DNA from: an uncultured Planctomycetia bacterium
Lineage (GTDB): Bacteria; Planctomycetota; MHYJ01; WSZJ01; CAZYRM01
DNA length: 64,000 nt
Reading direction: 5' to 3'
NCBI GenBank assembly: GCA_964649705.1
Contig: CAZYRM010000003.1
Location: 29,850-93,849, forward strand
Part shown: piece by piece, positions 2,240-43,609 of the stretch
Numbering within the stretch: position 1 is the stretch's first letter
How the letters are laid out: each line of letters opens with the position of its first letter
The notes under the pieces: model-generated
The model's database searches: none
What the model was told of the DNA's origin: nothing
What the model saw: the letters and a program-made list of their open reading frames with translations, nothing else
Position numbers and translations under genes: made by a program

Positions 2240-2310
2240 GATTCCATTCCGGACGCCCGAAACCCGCCCCGATCCGGCATTCCCCGTCTGGACGCAGATG
2301 GGAGCACCAG

Positions 2311-3591
2311 ATGAGACGAATCCCCCTCGCCGCGGCCGCTCTGGCCGCCGTCACCCTACTCCTCGCCGACCAGTCGCCCGACGAGGTCCGCAAGGCCATC
2401 GGCGACACCGAGGCCTCCGACGGCTGGGTCTACGACGACCTTCCCGCGGGCTTCGCGCAGGCGAAGCGGGAGGGCAAGCCGCTCTTCATCGTCTTCCGCT
2501 GAGTGCCCTGAAAGGGCTGCAAGGCCTTCGACGGGCAGGTTGCCCGTCTCGAGCAGGAACTCGCCGACCTCTCCTCGAAGTTCGTCTGCGTGCGCGTCGT
2601 CCAGATGCGCGGCGTCGACATCAGCCTCTTCCAGTTCGACTGGGACATGACCTGGGCGGCGATGTTCATGAACGCCGACCAGACGGTCTACGCCCGCTAC
2701 GGCTCCCGCGCCTCCGACCGCGACCACTCCGGCGACCTCGTCTCCGTCGCCGGCCTGCGCGCCTGCATGGAGCGCGTCCTCGATCTTCACGCGGCGTACC
2801 CCGGCAACAAGTCCCTCCTCGAGGGGAAGAAGGGAAAGCCCCTCAAGTGGCGCACGGCCGAGTCGATCCCGAACCTCGCGAGCCGCTTCAAGCAGACCGA
2901 CTTGCCGAAGGGCTGCATCCATTGCCACCACGTCACGATGGGCCTCCGCCGCGAGGCCGCCAACGCGAAGCGCCCCATCCCCGACAGCCTGCTCTGGCTC
3001 TACCCGCTGCCCGAAAACGTCGGCGTGAAGATCGCCATCGACGACGGCCGCCGCGTCGAGGCGGTGACGAAGGGCTCCGCCGCGGAGAAGGCGGGCGTCC
3101 TCGCGGGTGACGAGATCGAGTCGCTTGATGGCCAGGCCGTCACGTCGCCTGCCGACCTCCAGTGGGTCCTGCAGAACCTCGCCGACTCGGCCAGCCCGAA
3201 GGCGGTCGTGAGACGCGGATCCGAATCGAAGACGCTGACGCTTGCGCTCTCGGGGCCGTGGAAGCACTACGACATCGCTTGGCGCGAGTCGCTATGGGAC
3301 CTGCGCAGCGGCGTCGTGTGGGTGCCCCTGACGGACGACGAACGAAAGGCCGCCGGGCTCACCGGCGAGGTCCTCGGGCTCCGCGCGAAGTTCGTCGGGC
3401 CGCAGGGGAACGCGAAGAAGGGCCGTTTCCAGCAGGAGGACATCCTCGTCGAGGTGGACGGGAAGTCGGCGCCGATGACCGAAGGGGAGTTGATCGTCTT
3501 CCTCAGGCAGAAGCACGTCCCCGGCTCCAAGGTCCCGATGTCCGTCCTACGCGGGAAGAAGCGGGTCAAGCTGACGCTGGAGCTGAGCTAG
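2311..3591 (+). CDS. Secreted thioredoxin-fold selenoprotein candidate (UxxU active site, two in-frame TGA at 2500-2502 and 2509-2511) fused to two PDZ domains
   Basis: ORFs 2311..2502 and 2590..3591 are in the same frame separated only by TGA-GTG-CCC-TGA; the joined product reads signal peptide ... GKPLFIVFR-U-VP-U-KGCKAF (beta-strand + CxxC-type motif at a helix start, like thioredoxin WCGPCK); two PDZ-like segments (GVKIAIDDG...GDEIESLDGQAV and GLRAKFVGPQG...EDILVEVDGKS); TGA is a normal stop elsewhere in the window (valS, mlaF, hldE). Confidence 0.65.
2530..2548 (+). promoter_or_regulatory. Candidate bacterial SECIS element (stem GACGGGC / GCCCGTC, apical loop AGGUU)
   Basis: Perfect 7-bp GC stem with 5-nt loop containing GGU; apical loop lies 26 nt after the second UGA and 35 nt after the first, within the 16-37 nt window described for bacterial SECIS. 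Confidence 0.4.
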
Positions 3592-4947: not shown

Positions 4948-5757
4948 GTGGCCGACACGAAAGAGTCCTCCGAGCCCGCGATCTACGCCTTCTTCGGCGG
5001 GATCGGCCACGAGTTGCTGGCGATGTTCAGCGGCTTCGGCGCGTTCGGCCTCCTCTTCCTCCGCGTCATCGTACGCCTGTTCCGGAAGTGGCCCAGCCGG
5101 AAGATCCTGCTCCTCCAGATGTTCAACATCGGGCCGAAGTCGCTCGTGGTCGTCCTGACCACCGGCTGCTTCACCGGCGCCGTGATCGCCGTCCAGAGCT
5201 ACTTCCAGTTCAAGCGCATGCAGGTCGAGACCATGCTCGGCGCCATCGTCGGCGTCACCATGGTCAAGGAGCTCGGCCCCGTGCTCACGGGCCTCATGCT
5301 CGCCGGCCGCGTCGGCGCCGCCATGACCGCTGAGCTCGGCACGATGAAGGTCACCGAGCAGATCGACGCCCTCTCGGCCATGGCCACCGACCCGATCAGC
5401 CACCTCATCCTCCCCCGCTTCGTCGCCTGCGTCCTCCTCATGCCCATCCTCGCCATCCTCTCCGACACCGTCGGGATCCTCGGCGGCTACTTCCTCTCCG
5501 TGGTGGTCCTCGACGTCGATCACTTCTACTACGTCTACCACACCAAGGAATGGGTTGACGTCTGGGACATCCTCGGAGGCCTGATCAAGTCGTCGATCTT
5601 CGGCGCCCTGATGTGCCTCATCTGCTGCTACAAGGGCTTCAACTGCGGCCCCGGCGCCTCGGGCGTCGGCAAGGCGACCACGGAGAGCGTCGTCACCTCG
5701 AGCATCACGATTCTGATCAGCGACTTCTTCCTGACCGTCATGCTCTTCCGCATGTGA
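4948..5757 (+). CDS. mlaE: MlaE-family ABC transporter permease
   Basis: 269-aa multi-TM ORF with conserved MlaE/Ttg2B motifs (LGPVLTGLMLAGRVGAAMTAELGTMKVTEQIDAL). Confidence 0.85.
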   Translation: MADTKESSEPAIYAFFGGIGHELLAMFSGFGAFGLLFLRVIVRLFRKWPSRKILLLQMFNIGPKSLVVVLTTGCFTGAVIAVQSYFQFKRMQVETMLGAIVGVTMVKELGPVLTGLMLAGRVGAAMTAELGTMKVTEQIDALSAMATDPISHLILPRFVACVLLMPILAILSDTVGILGGYFLSVVVLDVDHFYYVYHTKEWVDVWDILGGLIKSSIFGALMCLICCYKGFNCGPGASGVGKATTESVVTSSITILISDFFLTVMLFRM

Positions 5758-5758
5758 G

Positions 5759-6589
5759 ATGGCCGAGACTCCGCTCATCGACATCGTCGACGTCCACAAG
5801 ACGCTGGGCGAGAAGCGCGTCCTCGCGGGCGTGAACCTCTCCATCGGGCGGGGGGAGTGCGTCTGCGTCATCGGCCAGAGCGGCACGGGAAAGAGCGTCC
5901 TCCTCAAGCACATCCTCGGCCTGATGGCGCCCGACAAGGGGCAGATCCTCGTCGAGGGGAAGGACATCACGAAGGCCACCATCCCCGAGTGGAACCTCTT
6001 CCGCCGCCGGGTCGGGATGGTCTTCCAGGGTTCCGCCCTCTTCGACTCGCTCACCGTCGGAGAGAACGTCGCGTTCGCCCTCCAGGAGCACACGGACCTC
6101 TCCGCGCGCCAGATCCGGAAGATCGTCGAGGAGAAGCTCTCGATCGTCGATCTTCCAGGGGTGGAGGGAAAGATGCCGGGCGAGCTGTCGGGCGGGATGC
6201 GGAAGCGCGTCGGGATCGCCCGCGGGCTCGCGACCGACCCCGAGATCATGCTCTTCGACGAGCCGACCACGGGCCTCGACCCCGTGCGCGCCGCGGAGGT
6301 GGACCACCTGGTGCTGCGCCTGCGCGACAAGCTGTCGAAGACGGTGATCGTGGTCACGCACGACATGGCGAGCGCCTACCGCATCGCCACGCGGATCGCC
6401 ATGCTTCACGACGGCACGATCCGCTTCCTCGGGACGCCCGCCGAGGTGAAGGGCGCGGAGGACCCGTTCGTCCACCAGTTCATCAACGGCCTGATCGAGG
6501 GGCCCATCAAGAGCGAGTCCACGCGGACCTGGCAGCGCGACGAGGGCGGCTCCCCCATCGTCGGGAGCGCGGGGAAGGGGGCGAACTGA
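5759..6589 (+). CDS. mlaF: MlaF-like ABC transporter ATP-binding protein
   Basis: Walker A GQSGTGKS, signature LSGGMRKRVGIARGLA, Walker B IMLFDEPTTGLD; starts 2 nt after mlaE stop. Confidence 0.9.
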   Translation: MAETPLIDIVDVHKTLGEKRVLAGVNLSIGRGECVCVIGQSGTGKSVLLKHILGLMAPDKGQILVEGKDITKATIPEWNLFRRRVGMVFQGSALFDSLTVGENVAFALQEHTDLSARQIRKIVEEKLSIVDLPGVEGKMPGELSGGMRKRVGIARGLATDPEIMLFDEPTTGLDPVRAAEVDHLVLRLRDKLSKTVIVVTHDMASAYRIATRIAMLHDGTIRFLGTPAEVKGAEDPFVHQFINGLIEGPIKSESTRTWQRDEGGSPIVGSAGKGAN

Positions 6590-6590
6590 C

Positions 6591-7577
6591 GTGGCCTCCT
6601 CCCGCGCGGAACGTGTGCTCGGCGTGCTCGTCGTGATCGGGGTGGTCGCGGCCCTCTGGTCGGCCGTCGAGGCGATCCACGACCGGTACTGGCCGAAGGT
6701 GTACCGCGTCGTCGCCTACTTCGAGGACGCGAGGGGCATCGCCGAGGGGACGCCGATCCGGATCGCCGGCGTCCGCGCGGGGTGGGTGCTCGAGATCATC
6801 CCGCCGGGCTTCGACGCGCCGGCGCCGACCTTCGACCTCACCGGCCTGCCCGACGCCGAGAAGCAGAAGCGCGTGAAGATCGTCCTCGGCATCCTCGACC
6901 CGATCCGGATCCACACCCACAAGGTCCGCGTGGCGTCCATGGGCCTCATCCAGGAGCGCTACCTCGCGATCGACGTCGGCCACGAGGACCCCGTCCCCCG
7001 ATCCGGGGCCGCTGTCCTCGGCGAGCTGGACGTCTCGCTCGACAGCGTCGGCGACGCGGCGAGGAACGTCCAGGGGATCTTCAGCGACAGCGAGCTCCAG
7101 CAGCGGATCGGGCGATTCGGGGACGAGATGAAGGGACTGATCGGCGGGTTCAACCGGATCGTGGAGCGCGGCCCGGACGCGCTCAAGCGGGCCCAGGGGA
7201 CGTTCCGCGTCGTGGGCGACGACGCCAACGCGATGATCGAGGCCTCCTCGGACGCCATCGCCCGCACCCAGGCCAATTCCGCGGGGATCTCGGACCAGTT
7301 CGGAGTGACTCGCGAGCGGATCGAGCGGGTCCGCTCCGAGTTCCAGGCCCTCTCCGAGGCCGCGAAGGAGATGCAGGGCCACGTCGAGTCGGGAAAGGGC
7401 AACCTCGGACGATTCGCCTCGGACCCCTCGCTCTCGGAGTCGATCGAGGGCGTCTCGGGGGCGAAGACGAAGCTCGCATACGACCGAAGCAAGTCGGAGC
7501 CGATGAGCAAGGGCACGCGCTCGCTGCTCAAGGCGGCGAAGGCGATCCTCTTCTTCCTGGAGCCGTCGGACAAGTAG
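6591..7577 (+). CDS. mlaD: MCE/MlaD-family substrate-binding protein
   Basis: GTG start overlapping mlaF stop; N-terminal TM helix then MCE domain (YRVVAYFEDARGIAEGTPIRIAGVRAG). Confidence 0.75.
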   Translation: MASSRAERVLGVLVVIGVVAALWSAVEAIHDRYWPKVYRVVAYFEDARGIAEGTPIRIAGVRAGWVLEIIPPGFDAPAPTFDLTGLPDAEKQKRVKIVLGILDPIRIHTHKVRVASMGLIQERYLAIDVGHEDPVPRSGAAVLGELDVSLDSVGDAARNVQGIFSDSELQQRIGRFGDEMKGLIGGFNRIVERGPDALKRAQGTFRVVGDDANAMIEASSDAIARTQANSAGISDQFGVTRERIERVRSEFQALSEAAKEMQGHVESGKGNLGRFASDPSLSESIEGVSGAKTKLAYDRSKSEPMSKGTRSLLKAAKAILFFLEPSDK

Positions 7578-7587
7578 GAGGTCGACC

Positions 7588-8682
7588 GTGGACGAACGCA
7601 AGCTGGAATTGAGGCTCGGGATCTTCGTGACCCTCGGCCTCACGGTCTTCTGCGCCGTCGTGATCTACTTCCTGAAGGAAGGGGCCTTCCTGAACACCTA
7701 CCGCGTCACGGCCTACTTCGAGGACGTGACCGGCGTGGACGCGAAGAGCCCCGTCCAGATGGGCGGCGTGAAGATCGGGAAGGTCGAGCGGATCGACCCG
7801 CCGATCAAGGAGGACATCGAGGCGGCCCGCGGGAAGTCGGGCATCGCCATGACCGACCAGCAGATCAAGGAAGCCGAGGGGCGCGGCGACTACTCCCACC
7901 TCCCCGAAGGTCAGAAGCGCGCGCGGATCAAGGTCGTCATCCAGATCGAGCCCAGCTACCGCATCCGATCGCGCACGATCCGCATCGCGTCGAAGGGGCT
8001 CATCGGCGACAAGTTCCTCGAGTTCAAGCTCTCCGAGGCCGAGTTCAGCGGCGACGCGCTGCCGACGGACGGGACCGGCGAGGTCGAGGGAGAGACGCCC
8101 ACGAGCCAGGAGGAGCTGCTGAAGGGGGTCCAGAAGACGCTCGAGTTCTTCGGCGACCCGGCCCTCAAGGAGCGCGTGAACAACTTCCTCGACGAGGCCA
8201 CCACGCTGTTCCGCAAGGGGCAGCCGGTCCTCGACGACACCGACAAGCTGCTCGTGAACGTCGACAAGATGGTCATGACGCTCGGCGAGGACACCCACGT
8301 CATGATGGGGAGCGTCACGGACCAGGTGACGCGAACCTCCGACACGCTGAACGGGTTCATGATCTCGTTCGACCCGACCCGGGAGAAGCTGAACAACAAC
8401 CTGGACGAGCTGGAGAAGAGCCTCGTCTCGTTCCGGGGCGTCGTGGAGGACATCAAGTCGGGCCAGGGGTCGATCGGGAAGCTGTACAAGGACGAGGAGC
8501 TGTACGAGCGGCTCGTCTCGGTCGCCGACTCGGCCCAGCTCACGCTGGAGGACGCGGACACGGCCATCCTGTTCCTGACCGACAACCCGGCGAGCCTCAT
8601 CTGGGGGCGGGACGAGCGGAAGGAGCCGATCGAGCGACTGGAGTCCAGGCCGCGGTCGGCGTACACGCCGCCGAATCAGTAG
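7588..8682 (+). CDS. Second MCE-domain protein (MlaD paralog)
   Basis: N-terminal TM helix + MCE domain (YRVTAYFEDVTGVDAKSPVQMGGVKIGKV); same operon. Confidence 0.75.
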   Translation: MDERKLELRLGIFVTLGLTVFCAVVIYFLKEGAFLNTYRVTAYFEDVTGVDAKSPVQMGGVKIGKVERIDPPIKEDIEAARGKSGIAMTDQQIKEAEGRGDYSHLPEGQKRARIKVVIQIEPSYRIRSRTIRIASKGLIGDKFLEFKLSEAEFSGDALPTDGTGEVEGETPTSQEELLKGVQKTLEFFGDPALKERVNNFLDEATTLFRKGQPVLDDTDKLLVNVDKMVMTLGEDTHVMMGSVTDQVTRTSDTLNGFMISFDPTREKLNNNLDELEKSLVSFRGVVEDIKSGQGSIGKLYKDEELYERLVSVADSAQLTLEDADTAILFLTDNPASLIWGRDERKEPIERLESRPRSAYTPPNQ

Positions 8683-11425: not shown

Positions 11426-11811
11426 AGGCGCGATCCCGCTCCGCGGCCCGCTGGGTCCCCGTGCTCGTGTACATGGCCGGGATCTTCTGGCTCTCGAGCA
11501 TGGAACGCCCTCGGATCCCGCTCGCCGTGAACGACAAGCTCGCCCACGTCGCGGCGTACGCGCTCCTCGGCGCGCTCGTCCTGCGGGCGGCGAACGGCGG
11601 CCTCGGCCGGCCCGCCTCGGCGGGCGCGGTCCTCTTCTCCCTCCTGCTCTCGGCCGCGTACGGCGCCTCCGACGAGTGGCACCAGTCGTTCGTCCCCGGG
11701 CGGGTCGCCTCCGCGGGCGACGTCGTCGCCGACGCCCTGGGCGCGTTCCTGGCGATCGCGGTTCTGGCCGCGTGGGGACGGCGCCCCTATAATGCCCCTG
11801 TCCAACGCTGA
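11422..11811 (+). CDS. VanZ-like family membrane protein
   Basis: GTG overlapping valS stop (GTGA); 4 TM helices, conserved DEWHQSFVPGR motif. Confidence 0.65.
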   Translation: MKARSRSAARWVPVLVYMAGIFWLSSMERPRIPLAVNDKLAHVAAYALLGALVLRAANGGLGRPASAGAVLFSLLLSAAYGASDEWHQSFVPGRVASAGDVVADALGAFLAIAVLAAWGRRPYNAPVQR

Positions 11812-42205: not shown

Positions 42206-42325
42206 CGAAGGCTCCTGGAACGCCGGCTGAGTCGGGCAGGATACCACGCCGGCGCCGCGTTCTGAACCTTTTGAGTTCGGCGGCGCTTCATGGTAGATCG
42301 ATCGGCCCGTTTGCCAGGAGTTCCC

Positions 42326-43609
42326 ATGCTCGACCTCGCCGTCATCCGCAAGGACCCCGACCGCGTGCGCGCGGCCGTGAAGAACAAGCACGAGAAGGCC
42401 GACGTCGACGCCATCCTCCGCGTCGACGAGGAGCGCCGCGCCCTGCAGACGAAGGTCGACGGCTTCCGCAAGGAGGTCAACGAGGGGTCGAAGCAGATCG
42501 GCCAGCTCGCCCGCCAGGGCCAGGACGTTTCGGAGCTGAAGGCTCGCATGCGGGCCCTCGGCGACGACGAGAAGGCCTCGGGCGCGCGCATGAAGGAGCT
42601 CGAGGACGAGCTCGAGCGCCTCCTCCTCTGGGTCCCGAATCTCCCCGCCTCGGACGTCCCGGTCGGCGAGGACGCCGCCGGCAACGCCGAGGTCGCGCGC
42701 TGGGGCGAGCGGAAGACGTTCGGCTTCGCCCCGAAGGCCCATTGGGACCTCGCGAAGGACCTCGGGATCATCGACTTCGAGCGCGGAGCGAGGCTGGCCG
42801 GCTCGGGCTTCATCCTCTACACGGGCCTCGGGGCCCGCCTCCAGCGCGCGCTCATCAACTTCATGATCGACCTCCACACGCGCGAGCACGGCTACACCGA
42901 GGTCTGGACCCCCGTCCTGGCCAACCGCGACGCCATGCGCGGGACGGGGCAGATCCCGAAGCTCGAAGACGACATGTACCGCCTGCAGAACGACGACCTC
43001 TTCCTCATCCCGACGGCCGAGGTCCCGATCACGAACATCTACCGCACCGAGATCCTCCCCGCCGACCGCATCCCGACGTACCTCACGGCGTACTCGGCCT
43101 GCTTCCGCCGCGAGGCGGGGGCGGCGGGACGCGACAACCGCGGCCTCGTGCGAATCCACCAGTTCGACAAGGTGGAGCTCGTCAAGCTCGCGCATCCCGA
43201 CAACTCGTACGTCGAGCTGGAGTCGCTCCTCGGAAACGCCCGCCGAGTGCTCGAGCTGCTCGGGATCGAGTACCGCGTGCTCAAGCTCTGCACCGGCGAC
43301 ATGAGCTTCGCCTCGGCGAAGACGTACGACATCGAGGCCTGGGCGCCGGGGCTCGACCGGTGGCTCGAGGTGTCGAGCTGCAGCAACTTCGAGGACTTCC
43401 AGGCGCGGCGGATGAACCTGCGCTTCCGTGACAAGGACGGCAAGACGCGCTTCGTCCACACGCTGAACGGCAGCGGCCTCGCGCTCCCGCGGACCGTGAT
43501 CTGCATCCTCGAGACCCACCAGCGGAGCGACGGAACGGTGGAGGTCCCGGCCCCGTTGCGCCCCTACATGGGCGTCGACGTGATCGCGCCCCCGGTGAAA
43601 ACGGCGTGA
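42326..43609 (+). CDS. serS: Serine--tRNA ligase
   Basis: N-terminal coiled-coil arm, class II motifs (FRREAG, GSGLALPRTVICILE); start MLDLAVIRKD. Confidence 0.9.
   Translation: MLDLAVIRKDPDRVRAAVKNKHEKADVDAILRVDEERRALQTKVDGFRKEVNEGSKQIGQLARQGQDVSELKARMRALGDDEKASGARMKELEDELERLLLWVPNLPASDVPVGEDAAGNAEVARWGERKTFGFAPKAHWDLAKDLGIIDFERGARLAGSGFILYTGLGARLQRALINFMIDLHTREHGYTEVWTPVLANRDAMRGTGQIPKLEDDMYRLQNDDLFLIPTAEVPITNIYRTEILPADRIPTYLTAYSACFRREAGAAGRDNRGLVRIHQFDKVELVKLAHPDNSYVELESLLGNARRVLELLGIEYRVLKLCTGDMSFASAKTYDIEAWAPGLDRWLEVSSCSNFEDFQARRMNLRFRDKDGKTRFVHTLNGSGLALPRTVICILETHQRSDGTVEVPAPLRPYMGVDVIAPPVKTA

Follow-up and report, generated by a model that had tools for sequence, protein, structure and literature searches.

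A Trx7/PDZ (NF041199) gene with two in-frame UGA codons, a covarying SECIS hairpin and a spacer hairpin associated with the UxxU state

The stretch of DNA analysed here (the window) comprises 64,000 nucleotides of contig CAZYRM010000003.1 from an uncultured Planctomycetia bacterium, and carries a complete gene for a member of the Trx7/PDZ family (NCBIfam NF041199) in which both cysteine (Cys) codons of the CxxC redox motif are replaced by UGA. From comparative analyses, we conclude that a hairpin downstream of these codons, here called H2, is a genuine, covarying bacterial selenocysteine insertion sequence (SECIS) for both UGAs, predicted to bind SelB. The double-UGA state (UxxU, with U for UGA) is, judging from the sequences sampled, common in the family and has arisen repeatedly, and a second hairpin in the spacer before H2, here called H1, is under RNA-level selection in UxxU genes only. 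We consider it likely that the gene encodes an exported NF041199 protein in which both UGAs are recoded as selenocysteine (Sec) via SelB through the single SECIS H2, with H1 assisting. The active site would then be Sec64-Val-Pro-Sec67-Lys-Gly-Cys70 on a thioredoxin fold.

Sec insertion in bacteria is thought to need tight spacing between UGA and SECIS within the coding sequence (CDS), and the decoding of two UGAs that are six nucleotides (nt) apart is an acknowledged open point. The Trx7/PDZ family provides a natural experiment in this respect, as it holds dozens of CxxC, CxxU and UxxU versions with identical SECIS placement and repeated switches between them, and H1 is the one RNA feature to follow the presence of the second UGA.

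The double-UGA gene, its relatives and the SECIS

The elements on which the analysis turns are the following.

2311..3591 (+): complete CDS of the Trx7/PDZ (seleno)protein, 426 codons with two in-frame UGAs, then TAG
2500..2502 (+): UGA1, at the alignment position of the first CxxC Cys; TGA occurs here in UxxU forms only
2509..2511 (+): UGA2, at the alignment position of the second CxxC Cys, where Sec is already known in the family
2518..2520 (+): TGC codon of a third Cys (U-x-x-U-x-x-C), at the 3' end of the 5' arm of H1 and opening its GCAA loop
2513..2528 (+): H1, AGGGCU-GCAA-GGCCUU, 6 bp with a GNRA-type loop, from folding and synonymous resampling
2530..2548 (+): H2, bacterial SECIS, GACGGGC-AGGUU-GCCCGUC, from conservation, covariation and the rules for bacterial SECIS elements (bSECIS rules)

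The frame runs on the forward strand from ATG at 2311 to TAG at 3589-3591, and its sole breaks are the TGA codons at 2500-2502 and 2509-2511, across which the translation reads ...GKPLFIVFR-stop-V-P-stop-KGCKAF.... Translation thereby confirmed the first-pass annotation, made from the letters of the window, in joining the open reading frames (ORFs) 2311..2502 and 2590..3591 as one frame parted by two UGAs. With U read as C, the protein matches NF041199 ("Trx7/PDZ domain-containing (seleno)protein") with 399.9 bits, against a cutoff of 300, over profile positions 2-389 of 390. The protein has the layout required by this family, namely Thioredoxin_7 (residues 39-101) followed by two PDZ stretches according to Pfam, and UGA2 provides the Sec or Cys expected at the second CxxC position, the UGA at the first position being additional. 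A single match to the composite pattern TG-N7-TGA-N18-GACGNNCAGKTNGNNCGTC is present in the window, compared to none in 100 shuffled versions even with two mismatches permitted.

An invariant R-C-[VI]-P-C, often within C-x-x-C-x-x-C, is shared by about 115 full-length Cys homologues exactly at the two UGA positions, in agreement with the earlier proposal that both Cys of a CxxC motif are encoded by UGA. These homologues are single ORFs; the division of homologues into two separate genes, named beforehand as a finding that would speak against recoding, was not seen among them. Two independent assemblies (L001 and L002; proteins 88% and 70% identical) both retain the double TGA, while the codons between the UGAs have changed from GTG-CCC to GTC-TCC. 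For a broader comparison, a genome sample of 84 gene copies was assembled from the window, two contigs and 78 loci of GTDB species representatives; the latter were found with a 7-sequence alignment, and the source genome of the window is not among the representatives. It contained 49 CxxC, 17 CxxU and 18 UxxU genes, and no UxxC gene. A metagenome scan queried with UGA2 plus the SECIS consensus (CAGKT), and thus without regard to H1, returned at least 120 loci; among the matches listed, 39 of 120 were UxxU and 81 of 120 CxxU. The genome sample and the metagenome matches listed form a pooled set with 57 UxxU and 98 CxxU genes. The double TGA is consequently kept in the same two codons in at least 57 independent genes, and UxxU forms make up about one third of the UGA-containing members sampled. 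In a rough neighbour-joining tree of the genome sample they appear at about six positions. Among the metagenome matches listed is a divergent subgroup whose centres read U-E-R/P/S-U; six of its proteins score 392-444 bits against NF041199, all above the cutoff. The third Cys is kept in 57/57 UxxU and 91/98 CxxU genes of the pooled set, and in 40/49 CxxC genes of the genome sample.

The start of H2 lies 18 nt downstream of UGA2 and 27 nt downstream of UGA1, and the H2 loop, of which 2537 is the first nucleotide, lies 25 nt from UGA2 and 34 nt from UGA1. The first-pass annotation had given 26 and 35 nt to the start of the hairpin; these distances are right when counted to nucleotide 2537 and wrong for the hairpin start. 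In the genome sample, which is unbiased with respect to the search pattern, H2 is present at the same position with -8 kcal/mol or lower in 35/35 UGA forms, and in only 2/49 (4%) Cys forms. The mean minimum free energy (MFE) of the H2 region in these 35 UGA forms is -13.3 kcal/mol for UxxU and -10.8 kcal/mol for CxxU. Across 34 distinct sequences, 238/238 pair cells are Watson-Crick or GU, and three pairs are changed on both sides, for instance as AU, GC or CG at one pair. The covariation measure is 0.334, compared to 0.146 for shuffled data; none of 500 shuffles reached 0.334, and all slid registers collapse. These pair changes shift the encoded residues in concert, as seen in Gly-Ala, Ala-Ala, Glu-Val and Glu-Ala codon pairs. 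The loop follows A-G-G-U-K; AGGUU, AGGUG, AGGUC or AGUUG is found in almost every one of 152 unique UGA-form sequences, a tally whose metagenome subset was preselected on CAGKT.

The published bSECIS rules specify a loop of 3-9 nt, an upper stem of 4-16 bp, an MFE of -7.5 kcal/mol or lower, a G at loop position 1 or 2 (N1-G-[G/U]-N-N2) and a distance of 16-37 nt from UGA to loop. H2 agrees with each structural and spacing rule through its 5-nt loop, 7-bp stem, AGGUU loop sequence and distances to both UGAs, that of UGA1 (34 nt) being near the upper limit. The SECIS-like hairpin noticed earlier at 2530-2548 is thus upheld for both codons. The local fold of the window region alone is unexceptional (z=-1.5), and the significance of H2 therefore derives from the comparative data. 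In Rfam, the window had no match at gathering thresholds, and over 2440-2620 the matches at E values up to 10 were at chance level.

Some family members have further unusual features. Tandem UxxU Trx7/PDZ paralogues, approximately 1.4 kb apart, were observed in two Planctomycetota metagenome-assembled genomes (L004, at 3091 and 4516; L005, at 3175 and 4574), and in L007 (1311, 3145) a C-P-P-C paralogue lies upstream of the UxxU copy. Locus L128 (Ga0066710_100533641) contains a TGA 29 codons past the first CxxC codon, at the conserved Cys of F-V-C-V-R (F-I-stop-L-R), with 99 open codons downstream; this is possibly an extra Sec site, seen in a single contig. L084 and L088, from different samples, have TAG in place of a conserved Trp (FDYDVT-stop-YAFF) 51 codons past the first CxxC codon, followed by 296 open codons, which may point to pseudogenes, to an error common to both contigs or to read-through of the stop.

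A hairpin in the spacer of UxxU genes

In UxxU genes, H1 occupies the 18 nt that separate UGA2 from H2; the H1 of the window has an energy of -7.0 kcal/mol. The median MFE of the H1 region in the genome sample is -6.7 kcal/mol for UxxU, -0.5 kcal/mol for CxxU and -2.8 kcal/mol for CxxC genes. When synonymous codons were resampled, with the protein fixed and codons drawn from the usage of the gene itself, 18/18 UxxU genes of this sample exceeded the expected stability (mean z=-2.26), compared to mean z values of +0.28 for CxxU and -0.48 for CxxC. The same contrast was present, with p about 1e-9 to 1e-11, in the independent metagenome matches listed (z -1.67 for UxxU versus -0.22 for CxxU; MFE -5.0 versus -1.8 kcal/mol), and it held in each of the two motif subgroups. 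For the pooled set of 57 UxxU and 98 CxxU genes, z was -1.89 versus -0.12 (p=1.5e-15) and MFE -5.26 versus -1.71 kcal/mol. The signal is local: three downstream control regions showed no difference between UxxU and CxxU in the pooled set, and the region 5' of UGA1 (-21 to -4, window 2479-2496) is slightly less structured in UxxU genes (z +0.31, versus -0.29 in CxxU; p=0.004). Shared ancestry was addressed with 18 path-independent UxxU/CxxU pairs among 129 U-form genes, in which H1 is stabler in the UxxU member in 15/18, with a mean difference of -3.7 kcal/mol (Wilcoxon p=0.0014; sign test p=0.0075).

With positions numbered from the U of UGA1, the stem of H1, of 4-6 bp, begins at nt 12-17. A tetraloop from nt 20 caps H1 in 35/54 unique cases, often of the GNRA type (GCAA, GCGA, GUGA, GUAA), and these tetraloops are built from the third-Cys codon. 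An outer helix may enclose both hairpins, with the following arm.

2554..2563 (+): tentative 3' arm of the outer helix; in the MFE fold it pairs with 2500-2510, the UGA1-UGA2 region, so that H1 and H2 lie inside

The number of expected pairs in this helix is 7.5 in UxxU, 5.5 in CxxU and 3.9 in CxxC genes (p=0.003). This weakly suggests a compact three-way structure, yet the helix may be a by-product of H1.

Decoding of the two UGAs and alternative explanations

The ribosomal mRNA channel extends approximately 10-12 nt 3' of the A-site codon, according to toeprinting and helicase studies. We propose that one H2, which lies at the same position relative to UGA2 as in CxxU relatives, would serve both UGAs, and that UxxU genes would have evolved H1 from the spacer because UGA1 is near the edge of the SECIS range. 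With UGA1 in the A site, H1, which begins 10-13 nt past UGA1, would be located just beyond the mRNA channel and stay folded, which in the window would leave 11 unpaired nt between UGA1 and H2 in place of 27. The three-codon advance to UGA2 would melt H1, after which H2 would be found at the usual 18 nt. In this way H1 would shorten or equalise the effective SECIS distance for both UGAs, and/or it would act as a brief roadblock that gives a second SelB.GTP.Sec-tRNA complex time to load on H2. That H1 is a dedicated cis RNA device (a collapsible spacer or pause site, or a second SelB site) for the insertion of two Sec with one SECIS is a tentative idea, to which we give somewhat less than even chances. 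Synonymous mutations can abolish H1, which opens the hypothesis to a direct test. If true, such a device would explain how bacteria decode UxxU motifs, and similar spacer hairpins may be a mark of genes with two close Sec codons in other bacterial families.

Several observations weigh against dual Sec insertion assisted by H1. The window has no tRNA gene of any kind. No tRNA-Sec and no selA, selB or selD was found in the 64-kb window, as the first-pass annotation had also reported for the window, or in 40 related loci. No solved structure or experimental study of any Trx7/PDZ member was found. The H1 of the window is not significantly more stable than its synonymous resamples (z=-1.31, p=0.29), because K-G-C-K-A-F gives good pairing even with its common codons. 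Three of the 18 independent pairs run in the opposite direction, and the trees are neighbour-joining trees without bootstrap. The helix register of H1 varies among genes, with paired columns summing to 53, 55, 56 or 57; classical covariation is therefore absent, and MFE, resampling, pair contrasts and flanking controls were used instead. An H1-like hairpin of the GGCCUGCAAAGGC type, with -5.9 to -6.8 kcal/mol, is also found in the CxxU genes L127, L170 and L177; these genes may be recent UxxU revertants or pre-adapted intermediates. To these points must be added that tRNA-ReC, which is reportedly enriched in UxxU genomes, could put Cys at SECIS-dependent UGAs.

The last point leads to an explanation that we regard as unlikely but as the chief biological alternative, namely that one or both UGAs, and most probably UGA1, are read as Cys by a SelB-delivered tRNA of the tRNA-ReC (SelC*) type. 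In that case the finished protein would have CxxU or CxxC, with UxxU confined to the codons. According to the 2026 study of Group 4 [NiFeSe] hydrogenases, genes resembling tRNA-ReC occur in about 56% of UxxU genomes, compared to 2.3% of other Sec-type genomes, and either or both UGAs would then be decodable as Cys (PMC13582414). The location of UGA1 close to the outer limit of SECIS spacing fits this explanation, as does the lack of UxxC forms, which means that Sec at position 1 never stands alone. No such tRNA was found in the window or the 40 loci, which represent a small part of each genome. Replacement of TGC by TGA without a change in protein would moreover bring the cost of inefficient recoding and no gain, yet the UxxU state recurs together with selection for H1. 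Insertion of Cys would still require H2, and is compatible with a role of H1. A different role for H1, as a second, weak SECIS for UGA1, so that each UGA has a SelB-binding hairpin of its own, is the chief mechanistic alternative and seems to us rather improbable. H1 is indeed placed like the minimal SECIS of Escherichia coli fdhF (start at nt 12-17 and loop usually from nt 20, versus nt 15 and G23/U24), has a G at loop position 1 or 2 in 49/54 cases, and has a UGA1-loop distance of 16 nt and a stem of 4-6 bp. However, its loops (GCAA, GCGA, GUAACA, UGCA and others) lack the near-invariant A-G-G-U-K of H2 and mostly also the consensus G[G/U] dinucleotide, the loop G derives from the conserved Cys codon, and many H1 hairpins, with a mean of -5.3 kcal/mol, are weaker than the rule of -7.5 kcal/mol. 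The unconserved register and sequence of H1 fit a need for a hairpin as such, rather than for a protein-binding site.

It is very improbable that the locus is not one gene, but encodes a 63-residue peptide ending at UGA1 and a PDZ protein starting from GTG at 2590, or represents a pseudogene, an assembly error or a case of UGA reassignment. In favour of a split, automatic gene callers divide the L001 and L002 genes, database entries are shortened to about 330-360 residues, and Sec machinery was not found in the window. A split would, however, halve the thioredoxin fold that the Cys homologues encode in single ORFs, both TGAs recur in the same codons in the independent sequences counted above, and a covarying SECIS accompanies every UGA form. 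The ratio of nonsynonymous to synonymous substitution rates (dN/dS) relative to L001 is 0.14 on the 5' side and 0.18 on the 3' side of the UGAs. This ratio and the recurring double TGA exclude, for practical purposes, an assembly error, a pseudogene and the two-gene reading; the double TGA is found in independent assemblies as well as in metagenome matches. Furthermore, TGA is the normal stop codon of 10 of the 25 confidently called window genes, including valS, mlaF, hldE and serS, and in these four the profile matches reach the model end before the TGA stop. Because TGA ends genes elsewhere in the window, the recoding is local, as the first-pass annotation had argued, and a reassigned genetic code was rejected.

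The protein, related systems and the surrounding window

The remaining features of the gene are listed below.

2300..2304 (+): putative Shine-Dalgarno-like GGGAG, 6 nt 5' of the ATG, from sequence inspection
2311..2367 (+): probable signal peptide (MRRIPLAAAALAAVTLLLA, followed by DQ), from inspection of the translation
2425..2613 (+): Thioredoxin_7 core, residues 39-101, with the U-V-P-U-K-G-C site, from Pfam
2914..2931 (+): C-I-H-C-H-H motif, residues 202-207, from family alignments
3043..3249 (+): PDZ domain 1, residues 245-313
3364..3579 (+): PDZ domain 2, about residues 352-423, a second PDZ_2 stretch; DegS-type PDZ matches cover residues 352-423

The N-termini of homologues are hydrophobic, like that of the window protein. 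The encoded protein is of about 46 kDa. In its mature form it is probably a periplasmic selenol/thiol(-disulfide) oxidoreductase, and a diselenide or selenenylsulfide site in such an exported, PDZ-targeted enzyme would be an unusual redox catalyst. The fold was approached by homology, through an AlphaFold 2 (AF2) model of the Cys homologue P0019, which is 41% identical to the window protein. The thioredoxin-like fold and the two PDZ domains noticed at first are supported by Pfam, by this model and by the PDZ matches, and the region of PDZ domain 2 has the strand and helix pattern of a PDZ domain in the model. A Foldseek comparison of the model with the Protein Data Bank (PDB) matched tandem PDZ domains alone, and a PDB sequence search gave no relative of the N-terminal half. 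By analogy with DegP and DegQ, the PDZ tandem probably holds or recruits client proteins. In the linker, which is helical, the C-x-H-C-H motif is well conserved across the family, with C202, C205 and H206 invariant and H204 conserved to at least 90%. It fits the CxxCH consensus for haem c attachment and is located at a helix N-terminus in the AF2 model. A scan of the linker region revealed no cytochrome or other Pfam domain, and one homologue only gave a sub-threshold NrfB-like match (15.7 bits, cutoff 27). The motif may form a second site, of redox, metal or haem type.

The first-pass annotation considered the architecture uncharacterised, which proved incorrect, as both architecture and selenoprotein status are already known and the family is curated as NF041199. 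The Global Ocean Sampling (GOS) selenoproteome of 2008 contains it as "putative secreted serine protease MucD", the motif being CxxU, and reviews from 2022 and 2026 list it ("PDZ domain-containing protein, pfam13899, CxxU") with one Sec. Outside one review, no mention of NF041199 by name was found in the literature searched. The UxxU state of the family and H1 were not found in this literature either, and are new to it. Known members share the Thioredoxin_7 domain, linker and two PDZ domains, the Sec at the second Cys and the same SECIS with the window gene, which differs from the published CxxU form with one Sec in that the first Cys is also UGA and H1 is present. Gene callers split or shorten UxxU members, and the published listing understates the selenium use of the family.

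UxxU motifs are known from other proteins. The same review tables give them for prokaryotic Prx-like oxidoreductase, putative mercuric reductase and FmdB. SelL/Prx-like proteins, mercuric reductase (NF041115) and FmdB (TIGR02605) likewise combine a thioredoxin-superfamily scaffold with a U-x-x-U redox motif of two Sec, but these are different families lacking PDZ domains, for which no report of a spacer hairpin was found. Shchedrina and colleagues are said to have described in 2007 that one SECIS serves two Sec, which form a diselenide bond, in SelL. A relationship to SelL, which the first-pass annotation mentioned as a family of UxxU diselenide proteins, was not supported, and membership was rejected, since the match to NF040769 (14.7 bits, cutoff 120; E=0.018) is far too weak and the UxxU motif alone is common to both. 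Group 4 [NiFeSe] hydrogenases also have UxxU variants, for which one SECIS has been proposed for both UGAs and it was noted that further factors may have a part in decoding (Front Microbiol 2026, PMC13582414). They show a comparable mosaic of CxxC, CxxU and UxxU with the SECIS conserved between CxxU and UxxU, but are unrelated proteins in which Sec is a metal ligand, whereas the UxxU state in Trx7/PDZ proteins is associated with the cis element H1. The E. coli fdhF SECIS is, like H2, a stem-loop within the CDS 3' of the UGA with a small loop containing G-G/U (G23/U24, compared to AGGUU in H2). In its minimal form the hairpin begins 11 nt past the UGA, whereas H2 is 18 nt from UGA2 and 27 nt from UGA1, or 11 unpaired nt from the latter if H1 is folded.

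Proteases of the HtrA/DegP/DegQ type have a tandem of C-terminal PDZ domains of the same type as the window protein, and this shared HtrA-type tandem accounts for the database name "serine protease Do". However, HtrA/DegP has a protease domain where the window protein has a thioredoxin-fold domain. Identity with a Do protease was rejected, as TIGR02037 matched with 48.7 bits (cutoff 416) over residues 243-422 only and no Pfam match to a trypsin-like protease domain was found in the window protein.

No further gene with an in-frame TGA and coding-like GC content at third codon positions on both sides was detected in the window, except for a trivial stop/start junction at 11809. The neighbouring genes (an acyltransferase gene, mlaEF, MCE genes and valS) provide no clue to function. 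An mlaE-mlaF operon with two MCE/MlaD genes is located just 3' of the selenoprotein gene (4948-8682, +). The window also contains serS (42290-43609, +), the product of which also charges tRNA-Sec, yet this is a housekeeping gene. At the ends of the 25 window genes, TAG occurs 15 times, TGA 10 times and TAA not at all; with a window GC content of 69%, the excess of TAG over TGA is unusual for a GC-rich bacterium.

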